A DNA stretch of 64,000 nucleotides. Origin: Candidatus Binataceae bacterium. Lineage in GTDB: Bacteria; Desulfobacterota; Binatia; Binatales; Binataceae. Made by a program: the position numbers and the translations under genes. The DNA lies in the NCBI GenBank assembly GCA_963722605.1, contig CAVRNO010000004.1:410335-474334 (forward strand). Direction: 5' to 3'. This document shows positions 10,677 through 33,491 of this stretch, in pieces. The notes beneath the pieces were generated by a model that saw only the letters and a program-made list of their open reading frames with translations, made no database searches and was not told the DNA's origin. The first letter of the stretch is position 1, and each line of letters begins with the position of its first letter.

Positions 10677-10678
10677 CG

Positions 10679-14897: not shown

Positions 14898-15517
14898 GGA
14901 TTTCCATCCGCGGCGGCGCGCAAGCTCATCGGCGGTGATTCTCGAGCTCGACCATCGCGACCAGTCCCGACTGGGCCGCGATGTCCATGCAGGGCTGCGA
15001 CTGCGCCTCGGTCAGGACGACGCCGGTGGTGTGCGCGGCTCTGAGATCGTCGAACCGCTTTCTCAGTTTGAGCTTGTGGGCGAAATCGAGGGTTGCGCCG
15101 ACGCCGTCGAGGCGCATCGCCTTGAAAAAGAACTTCTGTCCTGCGCGGGAAAGGAACTTACCGTGCGGGGTGACGTGTTGTGGCTGAACAGGACCGGAAT
15201 TGGCAAGCATCTGATGTAGGCGTCCTCTGGATCAGGAACCAAGTGCCAAAGCCATGCCATCGGGAAAGTCCAGCGATTATGGGGCTTTTTCGGCGAACCT
15301 CCGCCTCGCACAAACCAATTGGGATGAGCCGTGTACGTTTTGCGCGCCGGGCGGGACCGGGAGCGAGGGGTTCGCAGGGTGCAAAATCAGGCAGGATGCC
15401 GTCGTGATATACACGCATGCCGCCCGGATAGACACCGCTAGATTGGTTATTTTGCGAATGTTATACGTCAGTGGTTGAGATGCTAACGCAAGAATCCTTC
15501 CACCGGGTTTTACCGCA

Positions 15518-17251
15518 ATGAAACTATCGCTCACTTGTGGATGCCGGGGCCCCTCGAAGCTCGAACGAAAGCGTCAAACGACCGACGCGCCAATCGAGGC
15601 CACTGCCGAAGAACTGCAGGCGATGAGGGAGCAGCTCGCTGAGATCGAGCAATCGCTCTCGCGGCTATGGGGTCCGACAATCTGGAGCCGCACGCCCGAG
15701 TGCATCCAGATTCGCGCCGAGGCGGCGGATCTGATCGACCGGCACTTCGACGGGATCGTCGAACAGTGGGGAGATTCGATAGACGTCATCATCGACGGCC
15801 ATTCCAGTTACGACGAGAAGGGGCGCAGAGCGAGTTTGGCCAATGCGCTGATCCGGCTGGTCGATCATCTGCGCGATCCCGACGACATTTGCACCTACGT
15901 TTATCTGCGCCGGCATTGCCAGGAGGGGATGCTGGCGCGGGCCAAACCGTCGCAGTTCAACACCATCCACATCGCGCTCAAGCAAATAATTCTCAATCAC
16001 GTAAAATCCACGATGACCGGTCCGGCGATGGAACGGGTGCGCGACCTGGTGGTCGCGGCGATCGACGAGCGCCGCCTGATGGTCTCGCAGTTCTACATCG
16101 AGTCGCGCGAACGGCTGCTGCGCGAATCCGAAGAGAAGTACCGCAACACGATCGACCACGCGCCGGATCCAATGTACGAGATCGAACCGTACACCTGGAT
16201 CGTGACCGGGATGAATGCGGCTGCGCATCAGCTCGATGCTACGGTGGACGAATCGGGCGAGTATGGGGCGGTGATCGGGCGTCCGCTGCCGGATTGCGTA
16301 CCGCCGGAGGTGAGGGGGAAAGTTATCGAGAGCCTGGAGGCGGGCGTGGTCCCGGTTTTGCACCAGGGATCGACGAAGATCTCGGAGTTTCCGCTCGGGC
16401 CGTTTTTCTTCGACGTAAACTCCGCGCTCATCACTTACGGCAAGAAGCAATTCGTGCAGATGATCCTGCGCGACGTCACGCAGCGGCGCGACATGCTCGA
16501 CTCGCTGATCAAGGCCGAGCGATTGGCGGCGGCGGGCACCTTTGCGGCGGGCGTGGCGCACGAGGTGAACAACCCGCTGGCGTCGATCTCATCGCTGGTT
16601 CAATCGCTGCTGAGCGGCGAGAACGATCCCCAGCGGCGCACCTCGCTGCACACCATCCTGTCCCAGATCACGCGGATTTCGAGCACGCTCAAGGATCTGA
16701 TGAATTTCGCGCGACCCACCACCGCGCAGCGCAAGGCGATCGACGTAAACGGGCTCGTCGCCGAGACGCTGCGGCTGGTCAGCTACAACAAACGCTTCAG
16801 CGGCATCCGGATTGAACCGATTCTTGCACCCGATCTGCGCCGGGTGTTCGCCGACGACAACGAAATTCAGCAGGTGCTGCTCAATCTGCTGTTCAACGCC
16901 GCCGACGCCTCGCCCGCCGAGGGGGCCGTGATCAAGGTGATCACGGAGAACCAGCGGGCGGGACAGGGCGCGGACAAATCGCGCCGGGTGGTAATCAAGG
17001 TGGTGGACAACGGGATCGGAATCCCGCGCGAACATCTGGAACGCGTGTTCGATCCGTTCTTCACCACCAAGCCCGCGGGCGCCGGGGTCGGACTGGGACT
17101 GTCGCTATGCCAGCGGATGATCCTGGCCAATCAGGGCACGATTCGGGTTGACAGCGAGGTCGGCCGCGGCACCGCAGTCACGATCACGCTGGCGGCGGCA
17201 GCCGAGGATTCGGCGCGCGTGGAACCCGCGGCGAGCATGGCCGCGTCCTGA
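15518..17251 (+). CDS. cytoplasmic PAS-domain sensor histidine kinase
   Basis: …AAGVAHEVNNPLASISSLVQSL… H-box, …LLNLLFNAADAS… N-box, …VVDNGIGIP…GAGVGLGLSLCQRM… G-boxes; no TM segments. Confidence 0.85.
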   Translation: MKLSLTCGCRGPSKLERKRQTTDAPIEATAEELQAMREQLAEIEQSLSRLWGPTIWSRTPECIQIRAEAADLIDRHFDGIVEQWGDSIDVIIDGHSSYDEKGRRASLANALIRLVDHLRDPDDICTYVYLRRHCQEGMLARAKPSQFNTIHIALKQIILNHVKSTMTGPAMERVRDLVVAAIDERRLMVSQFYIESRERLLRESEEKYRNTIDHAPDPMYEIEPYTWIVTGMNAAAHQLDATVDESGEYGAVIGRPLPDCVPPEVRGKVIESLEAGVVPVLHQGSTKISEFPLGPFFFDVNSALITYGKKQFVQMILRDVTQRRDMLDSLIKAERLAAAGTFAAGVAHEVNNPLASISSLVQSLLSGENDPQRRTSLHTILSQITRISSTLKDLMNFARPTTAQRKAIDVNGLVAETLRLVSYNKRFSGIRIEPILAPDLRRVFADDNEIQQVLLNLLFNAADASPAEGAVIKVITENQRAGQGADKSRRVVIKVVDNGIGIPREHLERVFDPFFTTKPAGAGVGLGLSLCQRMILANQGTIRVDSEVGRGTAVTITLAAAAEDSARVEPAASMAAS

Positions 17252-17264
17252 GAATCGGACTGCG

Positions 17265-18689
<1,425 letters not shown>

Positions 18690-18778
18690 GAGGGCCACCG
18701 CGTAGGCGTGGCAATCCGGCGGTCAAGGATATAGACTTTTAGCGGGCTGGCTGCATGGCGGCGGGCCCGGAGAAAAAT

Positions 18779-18994
18779 ATGGATCTGTTTGCGCCAACTC
18801 ACCTGCTGATCATTCTGCTGATCATTTTGGTCATCTTCGGGCCCAGCAAGCTCGGCGATGTCGGCGGCGCGATGGGCAAAGCGATTCGCGATTTCAAGCG
18901 CGCGATGAACGAGCCCGACGATGCGGCCAAGACGGTCGCGAAGACCGACGACGCCAAAGCGGCAGAGGCCGCAAAGCCCGACAAGATTTCCTGA
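18779..18994 (+). CDS. tatA: twin-arginine translocase subunit TatA/E
   Basis: MDLFAPTHLLIILLIILVIFGPSKLGDVGGAMGKAIRDFKRAM… single TM plus amphipathic helix, acidic tail. Confidence 0.8.
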   Translation: MDLFAPTHLLIILLIILVIFGPSKLGDVGGAMGKAIRDFKRAMNEPDDAAKTVAKTDDAKAAEAAKPDKIS

Positions 18995-19627
18995 CCCGAA
19001 TCGATTCGCTGATTTTCCCGGACATTTCGGACATTCACTGAATCCGCCTGCGATGAGGCGCGCGTGAAGCGCGCGAGATCGCGACCGGACGGATTTTGAT
19101 CGCGCCGACGGGCGCACGATGGCCTTATCAGGTCTATCGAGCGTTCATCTGTGGTCTGCGTCCGATTTGGAGAGGTTGTGGAATAAAGGCGGCCTGGAAT
19201 CTTGCAGAGGCAGCCTGTTTGAACTAAAAGCGGGTTCAAATTAAAGGGTAAAACACGATCGCGAGAACTGTTACCGGCTTGCAAGGCGGTATAAAATTTG
19301 CTTACTTGGCAGGCAAATGTTTTTAGAATTATTTATGAGACGGCATTTCCCCCATGGCTTACAGGGACAGCGCCCAAGGGCTCAGGCCGATGATGATTCT
19401 TTTGGATACGAACACATCGCCCTTTGGAGGCAGTTGTCCTTGTCTTGGGGCAGAAACAGATTTTTTCCAGAGCAGTGAGAAGGCGAAGCTGACTACGAAG
19501 ATACCGGATCGGGTCCGGAGACGATCAAGACGAGGAAGAGGCCGGGACCAACAACGAATGACCTAACTTTCCGCCGCGGCCCGGCCCGCAAACCAACTGG
19601 CGGAAAAAGAACTGAAGGAGAGGATCC

Positions 19628-20041
19628 ATGGCGGAGAGCTTGAGAACCAACATTCGATCGAGACTGTGGACTTGGACCGCGTCGGCGATACCGGCGGTTG
19701 CGGCGCTGGCGTTGATCTCAACCGTCGCTCGCGCAGCCGATCTGACGTCCGCGGCGAGCAGTTACAAAGATACGTGCGCGAAGTGTCACGGCGACCTCGG
19801 CAAGGGCGACGGCCCCAAGGCGAAGGAACTGAAAGACAAGGAAGGCAAACCGGTCGCGATCGGAGATTTGAGCGATTGCGCCAAGATGGCCAAGGTCACC
19901 GACGACGACATGTTCAAGGAGCTGAAGGAAGGCGGCGCGTCGGTAGGCAAGAGCAAGTTCATGACCCCGTACGGCGACGCGATGGAGGACGACGAAATCA
20001 AGGCGATGGTCGCGTACGTCAGGACTTTGTGCAAGAAGTAG
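19628..20041 (+). CDS. periplasmic monoheme class I cytochrome c (paralog 1)
   Basis: Signal peptide …AVAALALISTVARAAD, single CAKCHG motif, 137 aa; GGAG RBS. Confidence 0.85.
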   Translation: MAESLRTNIRSRLWTWTASAIPAVAALALISTVARAADLTSAASSYKDTCAKCHGDLGKGDGPKAKELKDKEGKPVAIGDLSDCAKMAKVTDDDMFKELKEGGASVGKSKFMTPYGDAMEDDEIKAMVAYVRTLCKK

Positions 20042-20155
20042 CGGCGCGCGACAGGCTCTGAGCAGCGGTGGGCGGTTGAACGCGCGCTTTTGCCAACGGC
20101 AGGCACCCCAGATGGAAACGGCAAGCTGGACGTTAAGCAAGATGGAGGAGAAGCC

Positions 20156-20569
20156 ATGTCGAAGAGTTTGAGAACCGGGATTCGATCGAGGCTGTTGGTT
20201 TGGACCGCATCGGCGATACCGGCGGTTGCGGCGCTGGCGCTGATCTCAACTGTCGCTCGCGCGGCCGATATGACGTCTGCGGCGAGCAGTTACAAAGATA
20301 CGTGCGCGAAGTGTCACGGCGATCTCGGCAAGGGCGACGGCCCCAAGGCGAAGGACCTGAAAGACAAGGATGGCAAGGTCGTTGCCTGCGGAGATTTGAC
20401 CGATTGCGCCAAGATGGCCAAGGTCACCGACGACGACATGTTCAAGGAGTTGAAGGAAGGCGGCGCGTCGGTGGGCAAGACCAAGTTCATGACCCCGTAT
20501 GGCGACGCGATGGAGGACGACGAGATCAAGGCGATGGTCGCGTACGTCAGGACCTTGTGCAAGAAATAG
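20156..20569 (+). CDS. periplasmic monoheme class I cytochrome c (paralog 2, tandem duplicate)
   Basis: Starts MSKSLRTGIRSRL… (ATG 20156, GGAGGAG RBS). Near-identical to paralog 1 at protein and DNA level, including the 3' flank tagcggcgcgcg; 528 bp repeat unit. Confidence 0.85.
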   Translation: MSKSLRTGIRSRLLVWTASAIPAVAALALISTVARAADMTSAASSYKDTCAKCHGDLGKGDGPKAKDLKDKDGKVVACGDLTDCAKMAKVTDDDMFKELKEGGASVGKTKFMTPYGDAMEDDEIKAMVAYVRTLCKK

Positions 20570-20860
20570 CGGCGCGCGCCAGGCTCCAGAACGAGGAGCC
20601 CCGGCGCGCCGGGCTGGGAGCGAGCAGACTCAGGCAGCGGCTGGCGCGGAGTTCGCCGGCGGTATGCCCGGGGAGTTGTGCTCGCCCGTGCCCTGACCAC
20701 CCAAAGCGGCCAAGTGAAAGGGCTGGGACGGGTAGCCGGCGCAATCTCATCAGAGAGCGACCCAGGACAAGCGGGTCCGATCCACGGGATCGGACCGCTT
20801 GCCGCCCGGTAACCGGGCGCCGCTTCCCCGGATACAAGAAAGAAGCAACGCAGGTGGAAT

Positions 20861-22402
20861 ATGCAAACGAGCGGAGATGAGCCGGGCGCGCCGGGACCGG
20901 AGCGCAAGGAACAGCAGACTGGCGCCGAGGCCGAGCGCCAAGTTCCAAGCCTGGCTCGCAACCGGCTGAGCATCGCCGGCCTGATCATCGCCATCGTCGT
21001 GCTGGCGAACATGCTTTCGCTGGCCGGCATGACGATGCTGGGGGTGCAGTTGAACCCCTACGTCGGCATTTTTGCCTACCTGATCGGCCCGGCCGTGATG
21101 ATAGTGGGCCTGTTACTCATTCCGGTCGGGATGCTGTTCGAACGGCGGCGGCGCCGGAAGTATTTGCCGGGTGAGATGCCGCCTTTCCCCAAGCTCGATC
21201 TCAACGAGGCTTCGGTTCGGCGCGGCTTTCTCGGCGCGGTAGGCTTCTCGTTGTTTTTCGTGATTCTCAGCATGGTGGCAAGCTACCAAGGCTACCAGTT
21301 CACGGACTCGCCGATGTTCTGCGGCCAGACCTGTCACGTCCCGATGAAGCCGGAATTCGACGCCTACCAGGGTTCGCCGCACGCGCGGGTCGCATGCGCG
21401 GGCTGTCACGTGGGACCCGGCGCCACTTGGTTTGTCCGCTCCAAGCTGTCGGGCGCCTACCAGGTCTATTCGGTGATGTTCAACAAGTACCCCAGGCCGA
21501 TCGAAACTCCGATCAAGGAGTTGCGCCCGATTCGGGCAGCCTGCGAGCAATGCCACTGGCCGCAGAAGTTCTACGGCGCGCAACTCAAGGTCTTCCCGCA
21601 TTATGGATACGACGAGAAGAACACGCCCATGCGCATCCAGATGCTGATCAAGACCGGCGGTGGAGCTGCCGAGTTCGGCAACGCCACCGGAATCCACTGG
21701 CACATGAACATCGCCAACGAAGTATGGTTCGCGCCTGCTGACAAGCAGTCCCAGGTGATTCCCTGGGTAAAAGTAAAGACCCCTGACGGAAGGACCACCG
21801 AATACGTGGCCAAGGACAGTTCGCTCAGCGCAAAGCAGATCGCGGAGATTCCGATTCAGACGATGGACTGCGTGACCTGCCATGCACGCCCGTCGCATAA
21901 GTTTCTTCCGCCCGATCAGGCGGTCGATGCGGCGTTCGAGGCGGGTCAGCTCGACCCTACTCTTCCCTTCTTGAAGAGGCAGGCGGTCAAGACCCTGGTC
22001 AAGCACTACGACTCGCCGGAAAAGGCGGCCGAGGGAATCGCAACCGCCCTCGATACCTTTTACCGCAATCGCTATCCCCAGATTTATGGCCCGAGGTGGC
22101 CGCAAATCAAAGCTGCCATCGCCGCGGTGCAGGAGATTTACAAAAAGAACATGTTTCCGTATATGCGGGTTGACTGGCGCACCCATCCCGACAACATCGG
22201 CCACCTGTATTACCCGGGGTGCTTCCGCTGTCACGACGGGAAACACGTCAGCGCTGATGGCCGGGTGATTCCCCAGGCATGCGATTCCTGTCACACCGTC
22301 CTTGCAACTCCCACCAGCGTCGCCGAGTTCAAGCATCCGGTTGATCTGAGCGATGTAGGCGGCGCGACCTGTAGCACCTGTCACAGCGGGGGCGTGCTCT
22401 AG
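20861..22402 (+). CDS. inner-membrane heptahaem c-type cytochrome, ImcH-like (NapC/NirT-related quinol dehydrogenase)
   Basis: N-terminal TM helices (…LIIAIVVLANMLSLAGMTMLG…, …IGPAVMIVGLLLIPVG…), then seven CxxCH: CGQTCH, CAGCH, CEQCH, CVTCH, CFRCH, CDSCH, CSTCH; 513 aa. Confidence 0.7.
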   Translation: MQTSGDEPGAPGPERKEQQTGAEAERQVPSLARNRLSIAGLIIAIVVLANMLSLAGMTMLGVQLNPYVGIFAYLIGPAVMIVGLLLIPVGMLFERRRRRKYLPGEMPPFPKLDLNEASVRRGFLGAVGFSLFFVILSMVASYQGYQFTDSPMFCGQTCHVPMKPEFDAYQGSPHARVACAGCHVGPGATWFVRSKLSGAYQVYSVMFNKYPRPIETPIKELRPIRAACEQCHWPQKFYGAQLKVFPHYGYDEKNTPMRIQMLIKTGGGAAEFGNATGIHWHMNIANEVWFAPADKQSQVIPWVKVKTPDGRTTEYVAKDSSLSAKQIAEIPIQTMDCVTCHARPSHKFLPPDQAVDAAFEAGQLDPTLPFLKRQAVKTLVKHYDSPEKAAEGIATALDTFYRNRYPQIYGPRWPQIKAAIAAVQEIYKKNMFPYMRVDWRTHPDNIGHLYYPGCFRCHDGKHVSADGRVIPQACDSCHTVLATPTSVAEFKHPVDLSDVGGATCSTCHSGGVL

Positions 22403-22433
22403 CGCATCGGCGCGGCGCAGGCGGGAGGAACAA

Positions 22434-23807
22434 ATGGCGCAGGGATCATGGGGGATGGTTAGCTCCGGGCGGACGGCTGGCGGCCGCGGGCGCATCGCGT
22501 CCGCTATTGCCGCAATGATGCTGTGCGCGGTTGCGATGGGCCATGCCGCTGCTGCGACGAAGGCCGCTGTGACGCCGGCCGCGACGACGAAGGCGGCTGC
22601 TGCGACCAAGGCTGCTGCGGCGACGAAGCCCACCGCGACGACGCCGGCCGCCGCGACGACGAAGACGCCCACCGATAAGGATTGCCTGGGCTGCCATAAT
22701 CTCAAGGCTAGCGCCAAGTTGCAGGCGCGGCCGGTCAGCGTGTACGTCAATGCGGAGATCTACGAGCCATCGATCCACGCCAAGCAGGGGTGTGTTTCCT
22801 GCCATACCGACATCCGTTCCTTTCCGCATCCCGATCCGGTCACGCCGGTTTCATGCGCCGGCTGCCACGCGAAAGAAACCTCGGCCTACGCGATCAGCGT
22901 TCACGCAACCGCCGAGCGGGAGAAGAAGAGCCGCTTTCCGGCCTGCCTCAATTGTCACGGAAACCCCCACGGCCTGCGGGCGAAGACCGACCCGAAGTCG
23001 CGAGTCTATCCGCTCAACCTGCCGCGCACCTGCGGCACATGCCACGGAAACCCCGAGATTGCCAAGAAATATGGCTTTCCGGACGTGTACGGGCTTTACA
23101 TGGATTCGATTCACGGCTTCGCCCTGACCAGCGACGGGCTGCTGGTGGCCGCCACCTGCGCCAGTTGCCATGGGGCGCATGACGTCCTTAGCAGAAAGGA
23201 TCCGAAGAGCCGGACCTTCCCCAGAAATGTACCTGCCACCTGTGGCGGGTGCCATGCCGGCGTCCAAACCGATTACCTCGCCGGAGCGCACGGCACCGCG
23301 ATGATCGCCGGGCGCCCGAATGCTCCGGTATGCACGAATTGCCATACGGCCCATCAGATTGCCCAGGTGGAGGGCGCGAGCTGGCAACTCAAAACTGTCG
23401 CCACCTGTGGCAACTGCCACAAGGCCAGGCTGCAAAGCTACCACGATACTTTCCACGGGCAGGTGACCCAACTGGGTTTCGTCGCCACGGCGCGGTGCTG
23501 GAGTTGCCATGGCTCTCACTTGATTCTTCGGGCCTCCAATCCCAAGTCCAAGGTGGCGCCGGCCAACCTGCCGATTACCTGCGGCAAATGCCACAAAGGC
23601 GTAACCGCGAGCTTTGTCAGCTACGAGCCACATCCCAATCCGCACGACCGGAAGCAGAACCCGGGGTTATATTACGCGGCGCTATTTATGAACCTGCTGC
23701 TTTCGGCGGTTTTCCTCTTCTTCGGCATGCACACGGCGCTATGGCTTGCGCGGTCGTCGATGGGCGGGTCGCAGGGGAATGGCAATGGAGAAAGCGGTGA
23801 ACAGTAA
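22434..23807 (+). CDS. periplasmic 11-haem c-type cytochrome with C-terminal membrane anchor
   Basis: Signal peptide plus Ala/Thr/Lys-rich linker, eleven CxxCH motifs, repeated DPKS(R/K)xxPxNxPxTCGxCH modules, C-terminal TM …LFMNLLLSAVFLFFGMHTALWL…. Confidence 0.75.
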   Translation: MAQGSWGMVSSGRTAGGRGRIASAIAAMMLCAVAMGHAAAATKAAVTPAATTKAAAATKAAAATKPTATTPAAATTKTPTDKDCLGCHNLKASAKLQARPVSVYVNAEIYEPSIHAKQGCVSCHTDIRSFPHPDPVTPVSCAGCHAKETSAYAISVHATAEREKKSRFPACLNCHGNPHGLRAKTDPKSRVYPLNLPRTCGTCHGNPEIAKKYGFPDVYGLYMDSIHGFALTSDGLLVAATCASCHGAHDVLSRKDPKSRTFPRNVPATCGGCHAGVQTDYLAGAHGTAMIAGRPNAPVCTNCHTAHQIAQVEGASWQLKTVATCGNCHKARLQSYHDTFHGQVTQLGFVATARCWSCHGSHLILRASNPKSKVAPANLPITCGKCHKGVTASFVSYEPHPNPHDRKQNPGLYYAALFMNLLLSAVFLFFGMHTALWLARSSMGGSQGNGNGESGEQ

Positions 23808-24627
23808 CGATTCAGACCGCTATTATTTTCGGTTCTCGCTGGGACAGCGATACCTGCACGGCCTGGTGATCATAACCTTTCTGGGTCTTGCCGCCACCGG
23901 AATGACCTTGCGGTTCAGCGAGCGGGATTGGGCAAAGTGGCTGGCGGAAGCCATCGGCGGATTCACCGCAGTCCTATCTCTGCATAAGCTATGCGCGGTG
24001 CTCATATCAGCCGGCTTTATCTACCATGTTGGAGCGATCCTCTTCAGGGCGATAATCAAGAAGGAGCGGGGCCTCTTTTTGGGGCCATACTCGATGACTC
24101 CGCAGCCCAAGGACGCCATGGACCTTTTTGCGATGCTGCGCTGGTTTCTTTGGATGGGTCCGCGGCCCCAATTCGACCACTTTGCCTACTGGGAGAAGTT
24201 CGACTATTGGGCGGTGTTCTGGGGAATGGCGATTATCGGCATGACCGGCTACATGATGTGGTTCGGGCCTTTCTTTGCCCGCTACGTGCCCGGCTATGTC
24301 CTCAATATCGCGCTCCTGATTCACGGTGAGGAAGCTCTGCTCGCCGTCTGGTTCATCTTTATCGTCCACTTTTTTAATTCGCACCTGCGCCCTGAGGAAT
24401 TTCCGCTCGACCAGGTGATATTCACCGGCCGCGTCAGCGCTGGGGATTATCAGCACGAACGCCCGCTGGATTATTCGCGGCTTGGCGAGTCGGGCGCGCT
24501 TGAAACCTTGCGCGCCGACCCGCCTCCCCGTTGGCTCGAGAATTTCTCGCGGGTGATCGCGGTTATCTCAGTCGGAATCGGCTTTTCACTGCTGGTGCTT
24601 ACTGTGATCTCCTTTTGGGCTGAATAG
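23779..24627 (+). CDS. dihaem b-type cytochrome membrane subunit (FdnI/HydC/PhsC-like)
   Basis: Polytopic protein with conserved His in TM helices (…RYLHGLVIITFLG…, …HKLCAVLISAGFIYH…, …YWAVFWGMAIIGMTG…, …LLIHGEEALLAVWFIFIVHFFNSHL…). Overlaps the stop of the 11-haem gene by 29 nt. Confidence 0.65.
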   Translation: MAMEKAVNSNDSDRYYFRFSLGQRYLHGLVIITFLGLAATGMTLRFSERDWAKWLAEAIGGFTAVLSLHKLCAVLISAGFIYHVGAILFRAIIKKERGLFLGPYSMTPQPKDAMDLFAMLRWFLWMGPRPQFDHFAYWEKFDYWAVFWGMAIIGMTGYMMWFGPFFARYVPGYVLNIALLIHGEEALLAVWFIFIVHFFNSHLRPEEFPLDQVIFTGRVSAGDYQHERPLDYSRLGESGALETLRADPPPRWLENFSRVIAVISVGIGFSLLVLTVISFWAE

Positions 24628-24842
24628 GTGTGAATAGGTGTATGACCGGCGTTCACAGTTTTTTCGTAAGGGTCGCGCGGGCTTGTTTTTGCGGCCTGCC
24701 CGCCGTATGTTGACGCGCATCAAATTCCAGCATCCCATTGAGCTGGAGCGCCGGAACACCTGCGACAGATGCAGCAAAGGCGCAAGGCTTCAACGGGTGT
24801 GGAGAGACCTATGAACTCCGCTATCGCACAAGGAGAATCGCA

Positions 24843-25607
24843 ATGGTATCCGGCGTAGCGATCTTCATCGTCGCAATCTTTATTCTGAGCGGAGTTAAGG
24901 TTCTTAACGAATATCAGCGCGGCGTAATCTTCCGCCTGGGGCGGCTCGCGCCGCACCGCGGCCCGGGCATAGTTTACGTGATCCCGGTGATGGAGCGGAT
25001 GGTCCGCATCGATCTGCGTACGGTCACGCTCGACATCCCGCCGCAGGACGTAATCACCAAGGACAACGTGACCGTCAAAGTGAGCGCGGTGCTCTACTTC
25101 CGGGTGATCGATCCGTCGCGCGCGGTTACCGAGGTGGCAAATTACCTGTTCGCTACCATGCAACTCGCGCAGACCACGCTGCGCTCGGTAGGCGGACAGA
25201 CCGAGCTCGACGAACTCCTGAGCCAGCGCGACAAAGTCAACGCGCGCATCCAGGCGATCGTCGATGCCCAAACCGAGCCGTGGGGAATCAAGGTCATGCT
25301 CGTCGAGTTGAAGAACATTGATCTGCCGCAGGACATGCAGCGCGCCATCGCCGCACAGGCCGAGGCCGAGCGCGAACGGCGGGCCAAGGTGATCGCGGCC
25401 GAGGGCGAATTTCAGGCGGCGCAGCGTCTGGCCGAGGCGGCGGAAATCATGAGCAAAAGCCCCATCACGCTCCAGCTTCGCTACCTGCAGACGCTGGCCG
25501 AGATCGCGACCGAGCACAATTCGACCACCGTGTTTCCCCTCCCAATCGATCTGCTCGAGCCCTTTCGCAAGGTGACAGGCGCCGGCGACGCCGGCAAGCC
25601 GAAGTAA
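24843..25607 (+). CDS. SPFH/band-7 (stomatin/HflC-like) membrane protein
   Basis: [35 protein letters not shown]… N-terminal TM, SPFH core, coiled-coil [17 protein letters not shown]. Confidence 0.85.
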
Positions 25608-25804
25608 GGGGGAGAGAGCACCGCGCCGCCGTGGGGATGTGGCGCGCAGCAGTTGCAGCGTTGGCAATGATTTTGACGGCTGCGGGCAGCAGCGCGGGTG
25701 GCACATTCCGCGCTCGCGTGCAGGTCTTGGCAGACGGCCTGGGACGTGAAGAACGACTGCAGGAGGTCGGATGCCGATGGATTATTATGGCTGACAACTC
25801 AGCT

Positions 25805-25820
25805 TGGAATAAATATTGCT
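25805..25820 (+). promoter_or_regulatory. candidate sigma-54 (-24/-12) promoter upstream of cytochrome c paralog 3
   Basis: TGGAATAaaatATTGCT has GG and TTGC at the consensus 10 nt spacing but a weak -24 hexamer. Confidence 0.3.
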
Positions 25821-25969
25821 AATGCTTAAGCGAAGCGGATGAAGCAAGGGTAATCTATAACGAAAGTCAGAACGAGACGAATGTTACCATGTATCGACCG
25901 AATACACTTGTAGCCTTTCGTCACGATTTTTGGTAACGAAGCGAAAATTTGGAGAAAACAAGGAGCGAA

Positions 25970-26377
25970 ATGATCATGTCAGAAAATTCACCGGTGAAGA
26001 TTCGATCGAAAAGCTGGGGCTGGATACCCTCGGCGGCAGCACTAGCGTTGGTTTTAGCGCCGGCCTTGATCTCAACCGCCGCCCGCGCCGACGATCTGAA
26101 AGCCGCAGCCAGCAACTACACGGAGTCGTGCGCGGGTTGTCATGGCGCGACCGGCAAAGGCGACGGACCCAAGGCCGCGAAACTATCGGTGAAAGTGGGA
26201 GACCTGACCGATTGCGCGAAGATGGGCAAGGTCAGCGACGACGTCCTCCTCAAGGTGATCAAAGAGGGCGGCCCGGCGGCCAACCTCAACAAGGCGATGA
26301 CGGGGTTCGGCGATGCCTTTGAAGACAACGACATCAAAGGTCTGGTCGCCTATATCCGCAGTTTTTGCGCGAAGTGA
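25970..26377 (+). CDS. periplasmic monoheme class I cytochrome c (paralog 3)
   Basis: AAGGAG RBS 25960-25965, ATG 25970 or 25976. Signal peptide, CAGCHG, same fold as paralogs 1 and 2 (…GDLTDCAKMGKVSDD…LVAYIRSFCAK). Confidence 0.8.
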   Translation: MIMSENSPVKIRSKSWGWIPSAAALALVLAPALISTAARADDLKAAASNYTESCAGCHGATGKGDGPKAAKLSVKVGDLTDCAKMGKVSDDVLLKVIKEGGPAANLNKAMTGFGDAFEDNDIKGLVAYIRSFCAK

Positions 26378-26483
26378 AGCGGCGATTTCCAACCGGCTGC
26401 ATCGGTCGGAATCAGCGTGCCGACCGATGGGCGAATAGGTGGCAGGAATCGCAAGGAAATTGAATTGGCTGTGTGGATCTTTG

Positions 26484-26499
26484 TGGCATGCCCATTGCT
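26484..26499 (+). promoter_or_regulatory. sigma-54 (-24/-12) promoter of ACIII/Qrc-like operon
   Basis: TGGCATGcccaTTGCT, a near-perfect match to TGGCACG-N4-TTGCW, 45 nt upstream of ATG 26544. Confidence 0.6.
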
Positions 26500-26543
26500 C
26501 CGCCCTCCAAACTGAGATTATCGATTTGAGGTCATCCATCCAT

Positions 26544-27098
26544 ATGAGGGCGACGCCTTGGAGCACGGCATTTCTGCTGCTGCTATGCGGCTCCGCGTTG
26601 ATGCTAGGCGGCTGCAACTGGACGGTCCCGTGGTTCGGGCCGCCGGCGGCGGTGGAACAACCCATTGCTTTCAACCATCGCAAGCATGCCGCCGGTGCCG
26701 ACGGCATCAAATGCGATACCTGTCACAGCTATAGCTCCGCCACCACCGGAACGTTTGCCGGGCTTCCCCAAGTGGACACCTGCATGGATTGCCACAAGAT
26801 GGTGATGCGGATGCCACCGAAGAAGCTGGCGAAGAAACCGCAGTTCGCCAAGCTCAAGCAGTTCGTCGTCCTCGGCCGCATCCCGTGGGAGCGAGTATAT
26901 GCCGAGCCTGACTATGTCTATTTCTCCCACCGCCGCCACGTCGCAGTCGCGAAACTCGCTTGCGCGAACTGCCACGGCGACGTGCGCAATATGGTCGAAC
27001 CGGTTATGAGTCCGGTGGTCAATCAGTCGATGAATTGGTGCATGAATTGCCATCAACAGAAACGCGCCTCGCAGGATTGCATCGCGTGCCACAAATGA
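26544..27098 (+). CDS. pentahaem c-type cytochrome lipoprotein (ActA/QrcA-like electron-transfer subunit)
   Basis: Starts MRATPWSTAFLLLLCGSALMLGGC (lipobox). CDTCH, CMDCH, CANCH, CMNCH, CIACH; 184 aa. Confidence 0.7.
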   Translation: MRATPWSTAFLLLLCGSALMLGGCNWTVPWFGPPAAVEQPIAFNHRKHAAGADGIKCDTCHSYSSATTGTFAGLPQVDTCMDCHKMVMRMPPKKLAKKPQFAKLKQFVVLGRIPWERVYAEPDYVYFSHRRHVAVAKLACANCHGDVRNMVEPVMSPVVNQSMNWCMNCHQQKRASQDCIACHK

Positions 27099-29416
27099 AG
27101 CACCCGGCGGAAGAGCAAAACGCATTGCCGCGCGGCGACGGCGAGCAGCGAGGGATTGCCCGGCGCGATTTCCTCAAGCTGGCCGGCGCAGGCACGGTCG
27201 CGGCCGCGGTCGCCTCGACCGCGGTGGCGCACGCTGTTTCCGGCGCGCTGGAGGTCCGCGAGGACGAGTTTCCGCAGGGCGGGCCGGAATCCGTCATGGT
27301 GTCGCTGTGCGGGATGTGCCCGCAGCGATGTTCGATGACGGTGCGCGAAATCTCAGACCGGGCGGTTGCGGTCAAGGGCAATCCGCTCGATCCCAGCAAT
27401 CGCGGCGGCCTATGCCCGGTGGGCCAAGCCATCCTGCAACTGGTCTACAACCCCGACCGGGTGCGCAGTCCGATGGTGCGGGAGGGCGATCCAAATGCTC
27501 CGCGATGGCGCGAGATAAGCTGGGCCGAGGCGATCGCGCTGATCAAGAGCCGGCTTGAGGCGATCCGCTCCGGCGCCGGAGCGCATACCGTGGTGGCAAT
27601 CGGCGATGGCACGTCGGAGTTGTCGGGACTGATGATGGCGCGATTGCTGCGCGCCTATGGCTCGGCGAATTTCATCGCCGACGAGTCCGCACAGCCTTCG
27701 CACGGGCAGGATTTGACCCAGGCCATCAATGGCCGGGTGGCCTACGATTTCGAGAACAGCCGCTACATCCTGAGCTTTGCCGCACCGTTGGTGGAAGCCT
27801 GGATGTCGCCGGTGCGCCAGATGCGCGACATCGCGGATTTTCGCGCAGGATGGCTCGGCGAGCGCGGCAAGCTGGTGCAGATCGAGAGCCGCCTTTCAGC
27901 TACCGCGGCCAAGGCCGACGAGTGGATCCGGGTGAACCCCGGCACCGAGGGTGTGCTGGCGCTCGGGATCGCCGGCGTGCTGGTCAGATACCAGTTGTAC
28001 GACGCCGGGTTCGTGAAAGACCATGTGGCCGGCTTTGAGAATCCGCCCAATGAGAAATCGGTGCGCGGCCTGCGCGAGGTGGTCCTCCAAGACTATGATC
28101 CCGCCAAAGTTGCGGCCATCACCGGCGTCTCCAGCGAAGTGATCGTCCGGCTGGCGCATGAGTTTGCCCAGATGCGGCCCGCGCTGGCGGTGCCGCCGGG
28201 AGCGCGCCCCGGACGCCAAGACAAAGACTTTTTGGATGCGGCCACCCAGGCGCTGAACGCGCTGTCCGGCGCGATCGACCGGCCCGGGGGAGTGTTGGTA
28301 AACCGCGAACCGCCGCTGGCAGCCTGGGCGCCAATCAAACCGCAGCCTGATCAAGCCAAGCAGCCGCCCCTGCTCAAATTAAGCGAGCTTGCCGCCGCTG
28401 CCGAGGGGGGACATCCGTACCTTCCGAGCGCAGTGTTCGTGCTCGGGACCAATCCATTGTTCGGTTCCCAACCGATCCGGCCGGACGTGTTTGACCGGAT
28501 TCCATTCAAAGTCGCCTTCACAACGCTGCTCGACGAAACCGCGGCCCACGCCGACCTGGTGCTGCCCGACTGCACTTCGCTGGAGCGATGGGAAATCCGC
28601 ACGGCGACCCCGGGATATGCCCTGACCTCGGTCGGAGTTGGCAGCCCGGCGATCGCTCCCCTTTACGGTTCGCGCCCGGCGGCACAGGTGATCCTGGACC
28701 TGGCAAAGGCGATGGGAGGCGAGGTGGCCGGCGCGCTGGCGTGGAGTGATCCGGGCCAGGCGGTGAAGGAAATGCTTGTGGGGCTGCATGGCGCTGCGCA
28801 CGGCGAGATTTTCTCCGAGCGCTTCCGCCGCGAATACACGCGCCCGGAAATGAGGGCGTGGGGCTGGCCGGCGGATGCTTCGATCAAGCGTGATGAATTC
28901 GTTGAGCTGGTCATCAAACGCGGCGGCTGGATGGACCCGCGCTATTCGTTCGGAGACTACCAGTCGGTCTTGAAGACTCGGTCGGGCAAATTCGAGATGC
29001 CGGAGTTGCTGGGCTCCCCACCGCCGGTGGTTGCAGGCCAGCCCGGCTATCCGTTGGACCTCAATTTTTTCCAGCCGATCGCCTTGATGAGCACCATGGG
29101 GGCAAATCTGCCATACTTGCAGGAGGTGGCGGGCGCTCCCGAGGACTGGCCATGGGATTCTTACATAGAGATCAACCCTGCCACCGCTACCGCGCTCGGA
29201 ATCGACGACGGCGACTGGGTGGTGGTGGTATCGCCCATCGCGCAGATCGAACTGCAAGCTCACCTCTATCCGGGAGCGATGCCCAACGTGGTGAACATAC
29301 CGCTCGGCCAAGGGCATACTTCCCTGGGCCATTGGGCTAGCGGGCGCGGCGTCAACCCGTTCAAGCTGCTGCCCGAGGGCGGCGGCCCAGTGAAAGTGCG
29401 GATCGTAAAGAGATAG
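27095..29416 (+). CDS. molybdopterin-oxidoreductase-family large subunit (PsrA/ActB1/QrcB-like), Tat-exported
   Basis: Starts MKHPAEEQ… (ATGA overlap). Tat motif RRDFLKLAGAGTVAAAVA, N-terminal C-x2-C-x3-C…C cluster motif (SLCGMCPQRCS…GGLCPVGQ), ~770 aa with the CISM/DMSO-reductase-family fold. Confidence 0.75.
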   Translation: MKHPAEEQNALPRGDGEQRGIARRDFLKLAGAGTVAAAVASTAVAHAVSGALEVREDEFPQGGPESVMVSLCGMCPQRCSMTVREISDRAVAVKGNPLDPSNRGGLCPVGQAILQLVYNPDRVRSPMVREGDPNAPRWREISWAEAIALIKSRLEAIRSGAGAHTVVAIGDGTSELSGLMMARLLRAYGSANFIADESAQPSHGQDLTQAINGRVAYDFENSRYILSFAAPLVEAWMSPVRQMRDIADFRAGWLGERGKLVQIESRLSATAAKADEWIRVNPGTEGVLALGIAGVLVRYQLYDAGFVKDHVAGFENPPNEKSVRGLREVVLQDYDPAKVAAITGVSSEVIVRLAHEFAQMRPALAVPPGARPGRQDKDFLDAATQALNALSGAIDRPGGVLVNREPPLAAWAPIKPQPDQAKQPPLLKLSELAAAAEGGHPYLPSAVFVLGTNPLFGSQPIRPDVFDRIPFKVAFTTLLDETAAHADLVLPDCTSLERWEIRTATPGYALTSVGVGSPAIAPLYGSRPAAQVILDLAKAMGGEVAGALAWSDPGQAVKEMLVGLHGAAHGEIFSERFRREYTRPEMRAWGWPADASIKRDEFVELVIKRGGWMDPRYSFGDYQSVLKTRSGKFEMPELLGSPPPVVAGQPGYPLDLNFFQPIALMSTMGANLPYLQEVAGAPEDWPWDSYIEINPATATALGIDDGDWVVVVSPIAQIELQAHLYPGAMPNVVNIPLGQGHTSLGHWASGRGVNPFKLLPEGGGPVKVRIVKR

Positions 29417-29424
29417 GAATTAGT

Positions 29425-30123
29425 ATGGGACAGTCGATGCCGCGATGGGGAATGGTGATCGATCTCGACCGGTGCACCGGATGCCGCGGGTGCGTGGTCG
29501 CCTGCAAGCAGGAGAACAACATCGCCCCCTCGACCCAGGAACAAGCTGAGTCCAGCCGCATGATCTCGTGGATCAACGTGATCACGGTGATGGAAGGCGA
29601 TTACCCGGACGCCAAGCTGCGGATGCTTCCGATGCTGTGCCAGCAGTGCGAAAATCCCCCGTGTGTGCGGGTGTGTCCGGTCGGAGCGACCCAGAAGAGT
29701 TTGCAGGGGATCGTCGGCCAGATTTACCCGCGGTGCATCGGCTGCCGTTACTGCGCCTCCGCCTGCCCGTACCAGGTCAAGTACTTCAACTGGTTCCCGC
29801 CCAGTTGGCCGCGCGAATTTAAGCAATCGCTGAATCCCGACGTATCTGTGCGGCCCAAGGGAGTGATCGAGAAGTGCACGTTTTGCGTTCAGCGCCTTCA
29901 GCGCGCCCGCGATCAGGCCGCCTTCGAAGGGCGCAAGGTGCGCAGCGAAGGCGAGTTCGTTCCGGCGTGCGTGGAAAGCTGCCCGGCCAAGGCGATGTAT
30001 TTCGGCGACCTCGACGATCACACGACCGAAGTCGCCCACCTATCGCGCGACTCGCGAGCCTTTCGGGTAATGGACGAGCTGGGGACCGCGCCAAACATCA
30101 TTTACTTAAAAGAGAGCACCTAG
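29425..30123 (+). CDS. 4Fe-4S ferredoxin-type subunit (PsrB/NrfC/ActB2/QrcC-like)
   Basis: Four Cys clusters (CTGCRGCVVAC, CQQCENPPCVRVC, CIGCRYCASAC, CTFC…C…C). Confidence 0.8.
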   Translation: MGQSMPRWGMVIDLDRCTGCRGCVVACKQENNIAPSTQEQAESSRMISWINVITVMEGDYPDAKLRMLPMLCQQCENPPCVRVCPVGATQKSLQGIVGQIYPRCIGCRYCASACPYQVKYFNWFPPSWPREFKQSLNPDVSVRPKGVIEKCTFCVQRLQRARDQAAFEGRKVRSEGEFVPACVESCPAKAMYFGDLDDHTTEVAHLSRDSRAFRVMDELGTAPNIIYLKEST

Positions 30124-31479
30124 GTGGAAAACCGCGATTCAGAGCAAGATGCGATTCTCTTCGAGCCGGTGCTAAAGACCGGGCCCGGATATTGGCTCTT
30201 GATCTTTGTGTTGGTCAGTATCGTCTTGTGGGCGGTGTATGCATACGTGACCCAGTTTCGCCTGGGGCTGGGGGTTACAGGGCTCAACCGGCCCGTATAC
30301 TGGGGCTTCTACATTACCAATTTCGTCTTTTTTGTCGGTATCAGCCATGCCGGGACGCTGATTTCGGCGATTTTGCGGCTATGCCAGGCCGAATGGCGCC
30401 GGCCGATAACCAGGATGGCCGAGGCGATTACGGTGCTGGTCCTGTTTTTCGGCGCCGGCAACATCCTGCTCGACCTCGGGCGGCCGGACCGGCTGCTTTA
30501 CATGTTCCGTTACGGTCACCTCACTTCGCCCCTCATGTGGGACTGTATCAGCATCACGATCTATCTCTGCGGCAGCACGACCTATTTGTACGTCGCGATG
30601 ATTCCCGACCTGGCGCTCTTGCGCGACCGGATCACGGATTGGCGCCAGCCGATCTATCAGGTGCTCGCGCTGGGATGGAACGGAAGCCATGAGCAGGAGC
30701 AGCGGCTGCAGACCGCGATTGCGATCCTGGCGATCGCCGTCATTCCGATTGCGGTTTCCGTCCATACGGTGGTGTCGTGGGTATTTGCGATGACGATCCA
30801 GCCGATGTGGCACTCGAGTATTTTTGGGCCCTATTTTGTGGTGGGCGCGATTTACTCGGGCATCGCGGCGCTGATGCTGACGATGATTCTGCTGCGCAAA
30901 ATTTACCATCTGGAAGACTACCTGAAGGAAATCCACTTCGAGTATCTCGGCGAGTTGCTGCTGGCCATGTGTCTCTTATGGTTCTACTTCACGTTCGCCG
31001 AGTACCTGACGGCATTCTACGGGCGCGAGCCGGTCGAGATGAAGATCTTCTGGGCGAAGGTGACGGGACACTATGCGCCATACTTCTGGACGATGGTGGT
31101 GACAGACTTTGTCATTCCCCTGTCGATCCTGTGCAACGGCAAGACGCGCAAGATTCCCGGAATCGCGGTGGCCTCGGTATCGGTGTGCATCGGCATGTGG
31201 CTGGAGCGTTTCACGATCGTCGTGCCAACCCTGGTCAATCCGCGCCTGCCTTGGGCGCGGGGTTCGTATGCCCCGTCCTGGGTGGAGATTTCGCTGTTTG
31301 CCGGTTTCATCGCGGGATTTATCCTGCTTTATGCGATTTTCATCAAACTGTTCCCGATCATTTCCATTTGGGAAATACGCGAGGGACGCGAGCAAGGTGT
31401 CGCGGAAGTCACCGAGCGGTTACGCGGCTACCTGCCGGGCGACGGCGGGCTTGACCAGCCTGCTAAAGCCGGATCCTGA
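30124..31479 (+). CDS. NrfD/PsrC-family polytopic membrane quinone-interacting subunit (ActC/QrcD-like)
   Basis: GTG start directly after the upstream TAG. …GLGVTGLNRPVYWGFYITNFVFFVGISHAGTLISA… NrfD signature, ~10 TM, 451 aa. Confidence 0.8.
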   Translation: MENRDSEQDAILFEPVLKTGPGYWLLIFVLVSIVLWAVYAYVTQFRLGLGVTGLNRPVYWGFYITNFVFFVGISHAGTLISAILRLCQAEWRRPITRMAEAITVLVLFFGAGNILLDLGRPDRLLYMFRYGHLTSPLMWDCISITIYLCGSTTYLYVAMIPDLALLRDRITDWRQPIYQVLALGWNGSHEQEQRLQTAIAILAIAVIPIAVSVHTVVSWVFAMTIQPMWHSSIFGPYFVVGAIYSGIAALMLTMILLRKIYHLEDYLKEIHFEYLGELLLAMCLLWFYFTFAEYLTAFYGREPVEMKIFWAKVTGHYAPYFWTMVVTDFVIPLSILCNGKTRKIPGIAVASVSVCIGMWLERFTIVVPTLVNPRLPWARGSYAPSWVEISLFAGFIAGFILLYAIFIKLFPIISIWEIREGREQGVAEVTERLRGYLPGDGGLDQPAKAGS

Positions 31480-31559
31480 TCGGAATATCGAGGCTTGGAC
31501 ACGGGAGGCTTGCGCGCGCCGGCTGCGCGCGCTGGGCACTCCCCGCAACGGGAGATAAT

Positions 31560-31955
31560 GTGAAGCGGTTGGCAATTACAGCGGCAAGCCTGACGATCGC
31601 GGGCGCTCTACTACTGGCCGCCACCGGTCCGTGCATCGCGCAGGACTTGGCGGCGGCAAAGGGCAAATTCGATTCTCTCTGCGTCAAATGCCACGGAGTG
31701 TCCGCAAAGGGTGACGGGCCTGCGGCCGCGACGCTGGTGACCAAACCGGGAGACCTGACGGATTGCACCAAGATGCGTGAGGTTACCGACGACACGCTCT
31801 TCAAGATCATCAAAGATGGCGGCTCGGTGGCCGGTTTCGACCAGGCGATGCAAGGGTTCAGCGAGGGATTGAGCGACGACGAAATCAGGGGTCTAGTCGC
31901 CTACATCCGCAATTTCTGCGACCACCCGACGCCCGTCGCCGCAAGCCAACGCTAG
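31560..31955 (+). CDS. periplasmic monoheme class I cytochrome c (paralog 4, ActE position)
   Basis: GTG start with GGGAGA RBS, signal peptide, CVKCHG, …GDLTDCTKMREVTDD…LVAYIRNFCDH. Confidence 0.75.
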   Translation: MKRLAITAASLTIAGALLLAATGPCIAQDLAAAKGKFDSLCVKCHGVSAKGDGPAAATLVTKPGDLTDCTKMREVTDDTLFKIIKDGGSVAGFDQAMQGFSEGLSDDEIRGLVAYIRNFCDHPTPVAASQR

Positions 31956-32054
31956 CGGATTAAGCGGCGGGCGGGGCGCCAGTCGCGCTGATTTCCTGTT
32001 TCATTCCCGGCCTTTGCGCCCAGATCGCGCCCTCCATCTCCTCGATCGGAAAAT

Positions 32055-32092
32055 AAAAAGGGCCGCGGGATTTTCGCCCGCGGCCCTTTTGG
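32055..32092. terminator. bidirectional intrinsic terminator between convergent operons
   Basis: AAAAGGGCCGCGGG-attttcg-CCCGCGGCCCTTTT, perfect 10 bp GC stem flanked by A/T runs on both sides. Confidence 0.7.
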
Positions 32093-32124
32093 AAATCGGC
32101 CTTTTGACGGTTCACAAGACCGCG

Positions 32125-33480: not shown

Positions 33481-33491
33481 TCCCTTTCTCC

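Follow-up and report, generated by a model that had tools for sequence, protein, structure and literature searches.

The 64-kb window of Candidatus Binataceae DNA analyzed here (contig CAVRNO010000004.1) has three adjacent cytochrome genes, P1, P2 and P3, which are the subject of this work (Table 1). An initial annotation, made from the letters of the DNA and its open reading frames (ORFs), had read them as a co-operonic set of an ImcH-like heptahaem cytochrome, an 11-haem cytochrome and a dihaem cytochrome b. All three ORFs were confirmed at their positions, tightly linked and on the plus strand, and the two soluble cytochromes and tatA that had been placed upstream are also present. The gap between P1 and P2 is 31 nucleotides (nt) and contains GGGAGG. 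P3 ends at 24627 and has four candidate start codons (TTG 23746, ATG 23779, ATG 23785 and GTG 23797), every one of which overlaps the end of P2 (stop codon TAA 23805-23807), as the initial annotation had claimed for the cytochrome b start. The GTG codon has a GGAG 6 nt upstream and yields 276 amino acids (aa), which is the length of most homologues. The 7 haem motifs of P1 and the 11 of P2 are not a product of chance, since chance CXXCH motifs are expected far less than once per protein.

By its motifs and alignments, P1 is an ImcH-family protein. It is 513 aa long and has three N-terminal hydrophobic helices at about aa 34-60, 66-93 and 121-144 (hydropathy segments 30-64, 64-95 and 121-144); the loop at aa 94-100 is Arg-rich, which agrees with a cytoplasmic location. 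Haem motifs occur at aa 154, 179, 228, 337, 454, 474 and 504. The initial annotation had described transmembrane helices followed by seven CxxCH motifs. The helices and the number of haem motifs hold, but only six of the motifs are CXXCH; the first one (aa 154), ten residues past the third helix, is CX3CH (CGQTCH). This motif is itself the published signature of ImcH, and spacing and proxy identity agree with the ImcH-like assignment. Zhong & Shi 2018 (PMC6295460) describe ImcH homologues as having three N-terminal transmembrane helices, a CX3CH beside the transmembrane domain and six (5-9) CX2CH motifs, and P1 has all three features. The motif intervals of P1 are 25, 49, 109, 117, 20 and 30 aa, compared with 24, 49, 106, 117, 20 and 38 aa in GSU3259 (helices 13-35, 45-67 and 100-122) and 24, 49, 109, 117, 20 and 38 aa in a Rokubacteria homologue (PMC6295460). 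The last interval of P1 is thus 30 aa instead of the 38 aa of GSU3259.

GSU3259 was represented in the comparison by proxy, using metagenome-contig ORFs (L114 and L096) from a haem-spacing DNA pattern scan. The L114 ORF is 507 aa long with motifs at 132, 157, 206, 312, 429, 449 and 487 and helices at 10-38, 45-72 and 96-125; its length and motif coordinates equal the tabulated GSU3259 values once the 0-based numbers that the table gives for the six CXXCH motifs are taken into account. The alignment of P1 with this ORF covers 499 aa, between helix 1 and the last haem, at 43.5% identity (E 1e-154), and FCGxxCHVxM is shared; with the L096 ORF the identity is 44.2%, or about 43-44% over the full length for the two. 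The likeness to GSU3259 by proxy ORF (43.5%) is inside the published range of 31.5-49% between Geobacter-group ImcH and other homologues (PMC6295460). The P1 family comprises 755 clusters (50% identity, E <= 1e-30) among 1.84 billion representatives.

P1 has three parts: an NrfH-like quinol-dehydrogenase core with the CX3CH and its following Met, a middle domain, and a C-terminal c7/c3-like trihaem part. C154, G155, C158, H159 and M162, the Met that follows haem 1, are invariant in 40 homologues. Pfam detects the NapC/NirT N-terminal region (Cytochrom_NNT, 37.9 bits). The sole solved relative of P1 is NrfH (2j7a_C), with which it aligns over the third helix and haems 1-3, including the Met after haem 1. 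Unlike NrfH, CymA and NapC, P1 has two extra helices, a CX3CH as the first motif, a middle domain of ~200 aa and three further haems.

Variant ImcH-like proteins were observed at other loci. L055 (7881-10190, minus strand) and also L066, L092 and L099 encode natural fusions of 764-769 aa. In the L055 fusion an N-terminal PF01292 cytochrome b (aa 24-224, 90.8 bits) precedes a complete ImcH-like domain with its CX3CH at aa 403, and the b domain has no similarity to P3 at E < 1e-5. These four would be 'bc-type ImcH' proteins. L094 (1937-4057, minus strand) and L132 (1-2106, minus strand) encode ImcH-like proteins of 702-706 aa with 13 haems and a C-terminal c7/paired-CXXCH extension; the 13-motif ImcH homologues of the 2018 survey appear to resemble them.

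P2 is a 457-aa protein with eleven CXXCH motifs, a signal-peptide-like N-terminus, an Ala/Thr/Lys linker and a C-terminal hydrophobic helix (aa 410-439), in agreement with the 11-haem cytochrome and C-terminal anchor proposed initially. The internal repeat, for which at least three units had been claimed, was found as three [DN]PKSxxxPxNxPxTCGxCH units at aa 186, 256 and 369, each of which is the second half of a two-haem module of ~60 aa. His433 in the C-terminal helix is invariant. The haem intervals are 36, 21, 30, 29, 42, 28, 30, 25, 30 and 28.

P3 scores 41.9 bits against PF01292 (cutoff 30.1). Its AlphaFold model (pLDDT 75.8) has five helices (15-39, 56-87, 131-155, 166-196 and 245-275), and the only significant fold match in the PDB is FdnI, the cytochrome b556 of Escherichia coli formate dehydrogenase-N (1kqf_C; Foldseek E 8e-5, TM-score 0.70). 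H21, H63, H176 and H191 align with the four haem histidines of FdnI in a profile of 36 homologues, and these four and H77 are all invariant. The FdnI/HydC-type dihaem b subunit of the initial annotation is therefore retained. Unlike FdnI, with which it shares 18% identity, P3 has an extra C-terminal helix, an additional conserved His (H77) with another in the anchor helix of P2, and a multihaem cytochrome c as partner rather than a molybdoenzyme.

Fused proteins of 720-784 aa with an 11-haem c domain and a b domain are encoded beside imcH-like genes in L016, L053, L063, L067, L102 and L115. P2 matches their N-terminal half (37-42% identity) and P3 their C-terminal half (40-44%). Their eleven haems are spaced almost as in P2; in the L053 protein the intervals are 37, 21, 30, 29, 42, 28, 29, 25, 34 and 28. 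A fusion of 651 aa from a Koribacter metagenome-assembled genome (MAG) is 36% identical to P2 and 30% identical to P3. In a multiple alignment the C-terminal helix of P2 is helix 1 of the fused proteins, and the P2 stop and P3 start are located in the loop between helices 1 and 2, which is cytoplasmic if the haem domain is periplasmic. Together P2 and P3 have 1 + 5 = six helices. Helices 1-3 carry one His each, and helix 5 carries two. The same pattern was described for CbcL, unlike the four-helix CbcB, by Joshi et al. (preprint 10.1101/2021.04.15.440034). Because of their collinearity with the fused proteins, P2 and P3 are assigned by alignment as a CbcL/MtrH/MtoC-type bc cytochrome that is split in the first cytoplasmic loop and has a CbcBA-like gene layout. 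CbcL, MtrH and MtoC carry their c and b domains in one polypeptide, whereas here they are encoded by two genes.

The haem spacing of P2 has features of both CbcL and MtoC. The intervals 29, 42, 28 resemble CbcL, for which the tabulated spacing of GSU0274 is 23, 25, 23, 24, 29, 28, 43, 28. The last four intervals (30, 25, 30, 28) resemble those tabulated for Gallionellales MtoC (31, 25, 30, 28), and the two-haem modules are shared. Likeness to GSU0274 was also judged by proxy: a 9-haem L110 ORF with CbcL-like spacing (22, 27, 23, 24, 28, 31, 43, 28) has a b domain that shares 41% identity with P3 (E 1.7e-58). The pair differs from CbcL in having 11 haems instead of 9 and in being split after helix 1; fused 11-haem forms of the CbcL-type protein also exist in other lineages. 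P3 groups with proteins of CbcL architecture.

CbcBA of Geobacter (GSU0593-0594) was considered as the best match of P2 and P3 and was rejected. Both systems have separate b and c genes, a C-terminal anchor helix with a His and a sigma-54 regulator beside the operon. However, P3 has five helices and all four FdnI-equivalent histidines, compared with four helices and only three haem histidines in CbcB as described, where the C-terminal helix of the c subunit supplies the missing one, and P2 has 11 haems where CbcA has 7. CbcB and CbcL have no sequence homology to each other (preprint 10.1101/2021.04.15.440034). The Cbc-like resemblance noted initially is thus sound, with a split CbcL/MtrH/MtoC-type protein as the precise relative and CbcBA as the poorer description.

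The Ala/Thr/Lys-rich linker of P2, from the signal peptide to the first haem, is encoded by a degenerate tandem repeat (22545-22664; period 15-18 nt, 5-7 copies). Many P2 homologues are 20-60 aa shorter.

The best P1 matches are from Ca. Binatus and Binataceae. One such locus (L136; Ca. Binatus sp., GCA_036567905.1) was aligned to the window with blastn. Window positions 14359-19081 correspond to L136 1-4691 (89.9% DNA identity), 19287-19452 to 4983-5148, 19539-26385 to 8614-15398 (84.4%) and 37833-41592 to 17721-21452 (89.3%). The gene order of L136 is kinase, sigma-54 regulator, tatA, mtrA-like gene, mtrB/pioB-like porin gene, two cytochromes c and imcH, which continues with the 11-haem gene, cytochrome b, Band 7, cytochrome c, Rieske and cytochrome b. 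The mtrA-like product has 10 haems, and the porin gene scores 257 bits against the MtrB_PioB profile. The window has only 86 bp at the place where L136 has 3.46 kb holding mtrAB. A tblastn search with five MtrA/MtrB queries found no MtrA/MtrB similarity in the 64-kb window, and neither tblastn nor blastn against L136 found mtrAB remnants in the 18995-19627 spacer. The genes of an MtrA-type decahaem cytochrome and an MtrB/PioB-type porin, which belong to a complete Mtr/Mto/Pio pathway, are therefore absent from the window and present in L136.

A second difference is downstream of the trio. The window has an 11.4-kb block (26386-37832) that starts with a Qrc/ACIII-like complex, whereas L136 (15399-17720) has a Rieske protein and a cytochrome b. 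From the alignment, one complex-III-type enzyme appears to have been exchanged for another at the same locus. A Qrc/ACIII-like complex occupies the complex-III-type position in the window, L135 and L137, and L135 has mtrAB upstream together with this complex downstream. Two further features of the window block, both on the minus strand, are a second NrfD gene and another kinase/sigma-54 regulator pair (34517-37551).

All loci found via P1 homologues of 54-88% identity (L001, L003, L005, L007, L009 and L135-L138) have the trio, whether split or fused and whichever the gene order. It is also present in L011 and L012 (P1 homologues 33-34% identical), which come from a haem-spacing DNA pattern scan of genome contigs that gave five loci, none from Geobacter and two with the trio. 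The trio occurs in many more distant metagenome loci as well, and at least 16 contigs are common to the P1 match list and the P2 or P3 lists. It recurs in Binatia, Acidobacteriota and Methylomirabilota, usually with monohaem cytochromes c and a complex-III-type enzyme. An imcH gene paired with one of cbcL type is thus widespread and no peculiarity of the source genome. In the L114 locus the GSU3259-type ORF has no adjoining P2- or P3-like gene; P1 is in a tight operon with the CbcL-type pair and monohaem cytochromes c. Unlike Geobacter ImcH, P1 belongs to an aerobic soil phylum, and no paper linking ImcH to Binatota was found.

Genes similar to mtrAB flank the trio in L001, L005, L009, L135, L136 and L137. 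The trio is without adjoining mtrAB in L003, L007, L138 and the window. Zhong & Shi (PMC6295460) reported neither mtrAB nor mtoAB next to imcH, and so the mtrAB adjacency is new with respect to the 2018 survey. In the tables of the same survey, however, some Desulfuromonadales MAGs have imcH and cbcL under neighboring locus tags.

Several relatives have additional genes within or next to the trio. In L135 (11726-14263) and L137 (11554-14262), where P1 is 87-88% identical, imcH is called at only 437 aa and is separated from the 11-haem gene by inserted genes for a small multihaem cytochrome, an FeS protein and an NrfD protein. L003 and L004 have FeS and NrfD genes directly 5' of imcH with overlapping stop and start codons. 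In L007 (1316-13909) and L008, both from Methylomirabilota, the order is c7-like trihaem cytochrome, multihaem cytochrome (471 aa), cytochrome b and imcH, and further downstream are VKOR, a NapA-like enzyme, a faint NapB and Nar-like genes. The quinol dehydrogenases of the trio may thus, as a hint from this layout, act in nitrate reduction in Methylomirabilota.

Table 1. Genes and other features around the P1-P2-P3 cluster (positions are those of the 64-kb window)
Feature	Position	Strand	Evidence or remark
Sensor histidine kinase, first of regulatory pair upstream of cluster	15518-17251	+	HisKA + HATPase_c; syntenic with L136 1139-2872
Sigma-54-dependent response regulator (receiver, AAA+ sigma-54 activator, Fis HTH)	17265-18689	+	Pfam Sigma54_activat 230 bits, Response_reg, HTH_8
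tatA	18755-18994	+	PF02416 60.6 bits; TIGR01411 67.6 bits, above cutoff
Candidate sigma-54 promoter (-24 GG / -12 TTGCT), CGGTATAAAATTTGCT	19287-19302	+	Motif comparison
86-bp junction at place of L136 3.46-kb mtrA-like/mtrB-like stretch	19453-19538	.	blastn against L136
Monohaem class I cytochrome c, copy 1, signal peptide	19628-20041	+	PF00034/PF13442; one CXXCH
Monohaem class I cytochrome c, copy 2, tandem paralogue	20153-20569	+	Pfam match and haem motif
P1, ImcH-family heptahaem inner-membrane cytochrome (assigned)	20861-22402	+	Profiles, motifs, published family definition (PMC6295460)
P2, 11-haem periplasmic cytochrome c, signal peptide, C-terminal transmembrane helix	22434-23807	+	Haem motifs, alignment to fused proteins
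P3, dihaem cytochrome b (FdnI fold), 5 transmembrane helices	23797-24627	+	PF01292, model, alignment
SPFH/Band-7 membrane protein (ORF opens TTG 24738)	24843-25607	+	PF01145 131.9 bits
Second candidate sigma-54 promoter, TGGAATAAATATTGCT	25805-25820	+	Motif comparison
Third monohaem class I cytochrome c	25949-26377	+	Pfam match and haem motif
Qrc/ACIII-like quinone-interacting complex (five genes)	26544-31955	+	NCBIfam and Pfam profiles
Qrc/ACIII-like pentahaem subunit	26544-27098	+	Part of complex
Qrc/ACIII-like TAT-signal molybdopterin-like subunit	27095-29416	+	Part of complex
Qrc/ACIII-like 4Fe-4S subunit	29425-30123	+	Part of complex
Qrc/ACIII-like NrfD-type membrane subunit	30124-31479	+	Pfam NrfD 122.7 bits
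Monohaem cytochrome c of Qrc/ACIII-like block	31560-31955	+	Part of complex

The window has four class I monohaem cytochrome c genes. The tandem copies 1 and 2 are 91% identical to each other, and their closest solved relative is 6h5l_B, the cytochrome partner of the Kuenenia HAO-like complex (E 2e-9). A GC-rich palindrome (GGCGCGCGCC-like) follows each of these two genes. The Band-7 gene is directly 3' of the trio in all Binatia loci examined (L009, L135, L136, L137 and L138); in L009 and L136 a small ORF of 44-54 aa is located between the cytochrome b and Band-7 genes. The Qrc/ACIII-like complex scores 83, 291 and 291 bits against the NCBIfam models QrcA, QrcB and QrcC, all of which are under cutoff.

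The genes 5' of the cluster encode a sensor kinase and a sigma-54 activator. The regulator ORF opens with TTG 17148, and ATG 17265 results in 474 aa, the length of the L136 orthologue. Relatives share the two GG-N10-GC motifs (19287 and 25805) at corresponding sites. The first is at the orthologous site in L136 (4983), L009 (9037) and L003 (4501), and an identical copy of the second precedes the orthologous cytochrome c gene in L135 (17466) and L009 (14661). The cluster may be expressed under the control of the adjacent sensor kinase and sigma-54 activator. The cbcBA operon of Geobacter likewise has a sigma-54 regulator beside it (preprint 10.1101/2021.04.15.440034). Scans of the region for sigma-70 promoters and terminators gave counts not above those of shuffled sequence.

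The cluster may encode half of an Mtr/Mto-type extracellular electron-transfer chain, namely its inner-membrane and periplasmic components, with outward flow, a reading which we slightly favor. On this reading, a Binatus-like (Binatota) respiratory cluster would encode two distinct quinol:cytochrome c oxidoreductases of the cytoplasmic membrane next to each other, together with soluble monohaem cytochromes c. P1 would have an NrfH/NapC-type quinol-oxidizing core with three helices, lengthened to a total of seven haems. If it works like NrfH and ImcH (PMC12307469), it would oxidize quinol at the periplasmic face and release protons there. Electrons could pass outward through the membrane from the FdnI-fold b subunit P3 to the 11-haem wire of P2, if the quinone site of P3 is cytoplasmic as in formate dehydrogenase-N; the anchor helix of P2 would add a conserved histidine. 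The P2-P3 route would conserve less energy and could reach lower potentials. ImcH is described as oxidizing menaquinol and as needed for respiration of acceptors above about -0.1 V. Here P1 and P2-P3 probably have unlike energy coupling and working potentials, as is the case for ImcH and CbcL of Geobacter. Two exits in one operon may match energy conservation to the acceptor potential, as proposed for Geobacter. Both P1 and P2-P3 would pass electrons to periplasmic class I cytochromes c, and the next step in the relatives would be an MtrA/MtrB-type outer-membrane porin-cytochrome. The quinol oxidation, partner cytochromes and energetics are inferred.

Several points weigh against outward extracellular transfer. 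The periplasmic partners here are class I monohaem cytochromes, which are typically high-potential, while the carriers of Geobacter are PpcA-type trihaem proteins. We know of no functional test of either family beyond Geobacter and close relatives. The 64-kb window has no outer-membrane porin or further multihaem cytochrome, and the L138 locus also has no mtrAB. With no outer-membrane conduit in the window, extracellular electron transfer is putative for this genome. The initial annotation had suggested an extracellular or periplasmic conduit; the extracellular part has no outer-membrane partner in the window, although mtrAB-like genes are in the same locus of several close relatives. The trio of Methylomirabilota adjoins NapAB- and Nar-like genes, and therefore the ImcH- and CbcL-type families may be general quinol dehydrogenases. 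The likeness to GSU3259 and GSU0274 is by proxy ORFs, and the AlphaFold2 model of P1 was poor (pLDDT 59, pTM 0.40; 40-sequence alignment) and was set aside for fold comparison. Binatota have been described as aerobes with ACIII and complex IV (PMC8262859).

The same genes could work in the opposite direction, as the inner-membrane end of an Mto/Pio-type uptake pathway for oxidation of Fe(II), minerals or humics, which we regard as a real possibility but a doubtful one. Electrons would pass from an MtoAB/PioAB-like porin-cytochrome to the monohaem cytochromes c in the role of MtoD, and would then be divided between terminal oxidases and quinone reduction through the MtoC-like bc cytochrome and the ImcH-like protein. 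The order in the relatives (mtrA, mtrB, two cytochromes c, imcH, multihaem cytochrome, cytochrome b) is like that of mto clusters (mtoA, mtoB, mtoD, mtoC or cymA; PMC6295460, PMC8805035), no MtrC-like surface cytochrome is among the called genes shown for them, and the match of the last four P2 intervals to Gallionellales MtoC points the same way. A complex-III-type enzyme (Rieske/cytochrome b or Qrc/ACIII-like) is always next door, and a cupredoxin is encoded in L005 as well. It has been proposed that the PioAB homologues of Rokubacteria and Acidobacteria point to novel iron oxidizers (PMC10654088), and the aerobic life of Binatota (PMC8262859) would suit uptake. However, quinol oxidation is the only process to which ImcH has been linked so far (PMC6295460), the monohaem cytochromes are weakly similar to MtoD (4xxl, E 0.009), and the porin-cytochrome is absent from the window. 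With an FdnI-like cytoplasmic quinone site, as in the formate dehydrogenase-N structure, quinone reduction would also generate a membrane potential, and its electron donor would have to be strongly reducing. The broader proposal, that the imcH/split-cbcL/cytochrome c cassette, an MtrC-less MtrAB/PioAB-like conduit and a complex-III-type enzyme form an electron-uptake pathway in aerobic soil phyla (Binatota, Acidobacteriota, Methylomirabilota), is tentative and rather unlikely. Three observations keep the favored outward flow at roughly even odds: the gene arrangement in relatives is like that of mto clusters, class I cytochromes are the carriers, and a complex-III-type enzyme always adjoins.

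It is also conceivable, but quite improbable, that the cluster has no extracellular role here and that P1 and P2-P3 are extra quinol:cytochrome c oxidoreductases of an ordinary aerobic or microaerobic chain, which would feed the four class I cytochromes c in parallel to the adjoining Qrc/ACIII-like complex. The lack of a conduit in the window, the number of class I cytochrome c genes, the complex-III substitute directly downstream and the same conduit-less layout in L138 are consistent with this. However, wires of 7 and 11 haems are unnecessary to reduce a soluble monohaem cytochrome, the trio is beside mtrAB-like genes in six of the related loci examined, and a conduit may be elsewhere in the genome, outside the window. 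A role of P1 as a NapC/NrfH/CymA-type quinol dehydrogenase for nitrogen-oxide reductases is very improbable. The Cytochrom_NNT match, NrfH as the only PDB relative of P1, and the NapA/NapB-like and Nar-like genes after the trio in Methylomirabilota (L007, L008) would be in its favor, but ImcH is itself a derivative of the NapC/NirT family, so that matches to Cytochrom_NNT and NrfH are expected. P1 has 7 haems, 3 transmembrane helices and 513 aa, compared with 4 haems, one helix and about 150 aa in NrfH. The equivalog models for NrfH, TorC and NrfB all score far under their cutoffs (NrfH, TIGR03153: 53.5 bits, cutoff 134.2), and the window has no nap, nrf, nir or hao gene. A nitrogen-cycle role was therefore rejected as the main explanation, and the NrfH/NapC/Hao-type result that the initial annotation had named as contrary to its reading did not occur.

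ImcH and CbcL serve as marker genes for microbial iron reduction and, to our knowledge, have been studied in Geobacter only. The window alone gives a well-supported annotation without surprise, adding new Binatota members to two known cytochrome families. Across the loci compared, several uncultured soil phyla share a conserved cassette that encodes both the ImcH and the CbcL type, and the CbcL type exists both fused and split. Taken together with the position of the cassette beside MtrAB-like conduits in relatives, this widens the likely reach of extracellular electron transfer in soils. The presence and absence of mtrAB between genomes that share about 90% flanking DNA identity is a natural comparison, and the cassettes are concrete material for heterologous testing. 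If uptake were true, ImcH-family proteins would be quinone reductases or electron distributors, and the uncultured lineages would be cryptic oxidizers of Fe(II), minerals or humics. The view that ImcH marks only metal reducers would then be overturned, and the presence or absence of the cassette, with mtrAB lost in the window, would predict the trait.

Rfam and tRNA scans of the window gave nothing beyond a tRNA-Val at 2369-2443. The region 10001-12000 has a G+C content of 0.545, compared with about 0.62 elsewhere, and includes an ORF (10478-11269) without a Pfam match. At 61731-63912 a gene for an NHL-repeat protein precedes an IS1595-family transposase, which is at the edge of the window. 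Genes for NHL and Kelch beta-propellers also adjoin mtrAB in L005, L135 and L137.

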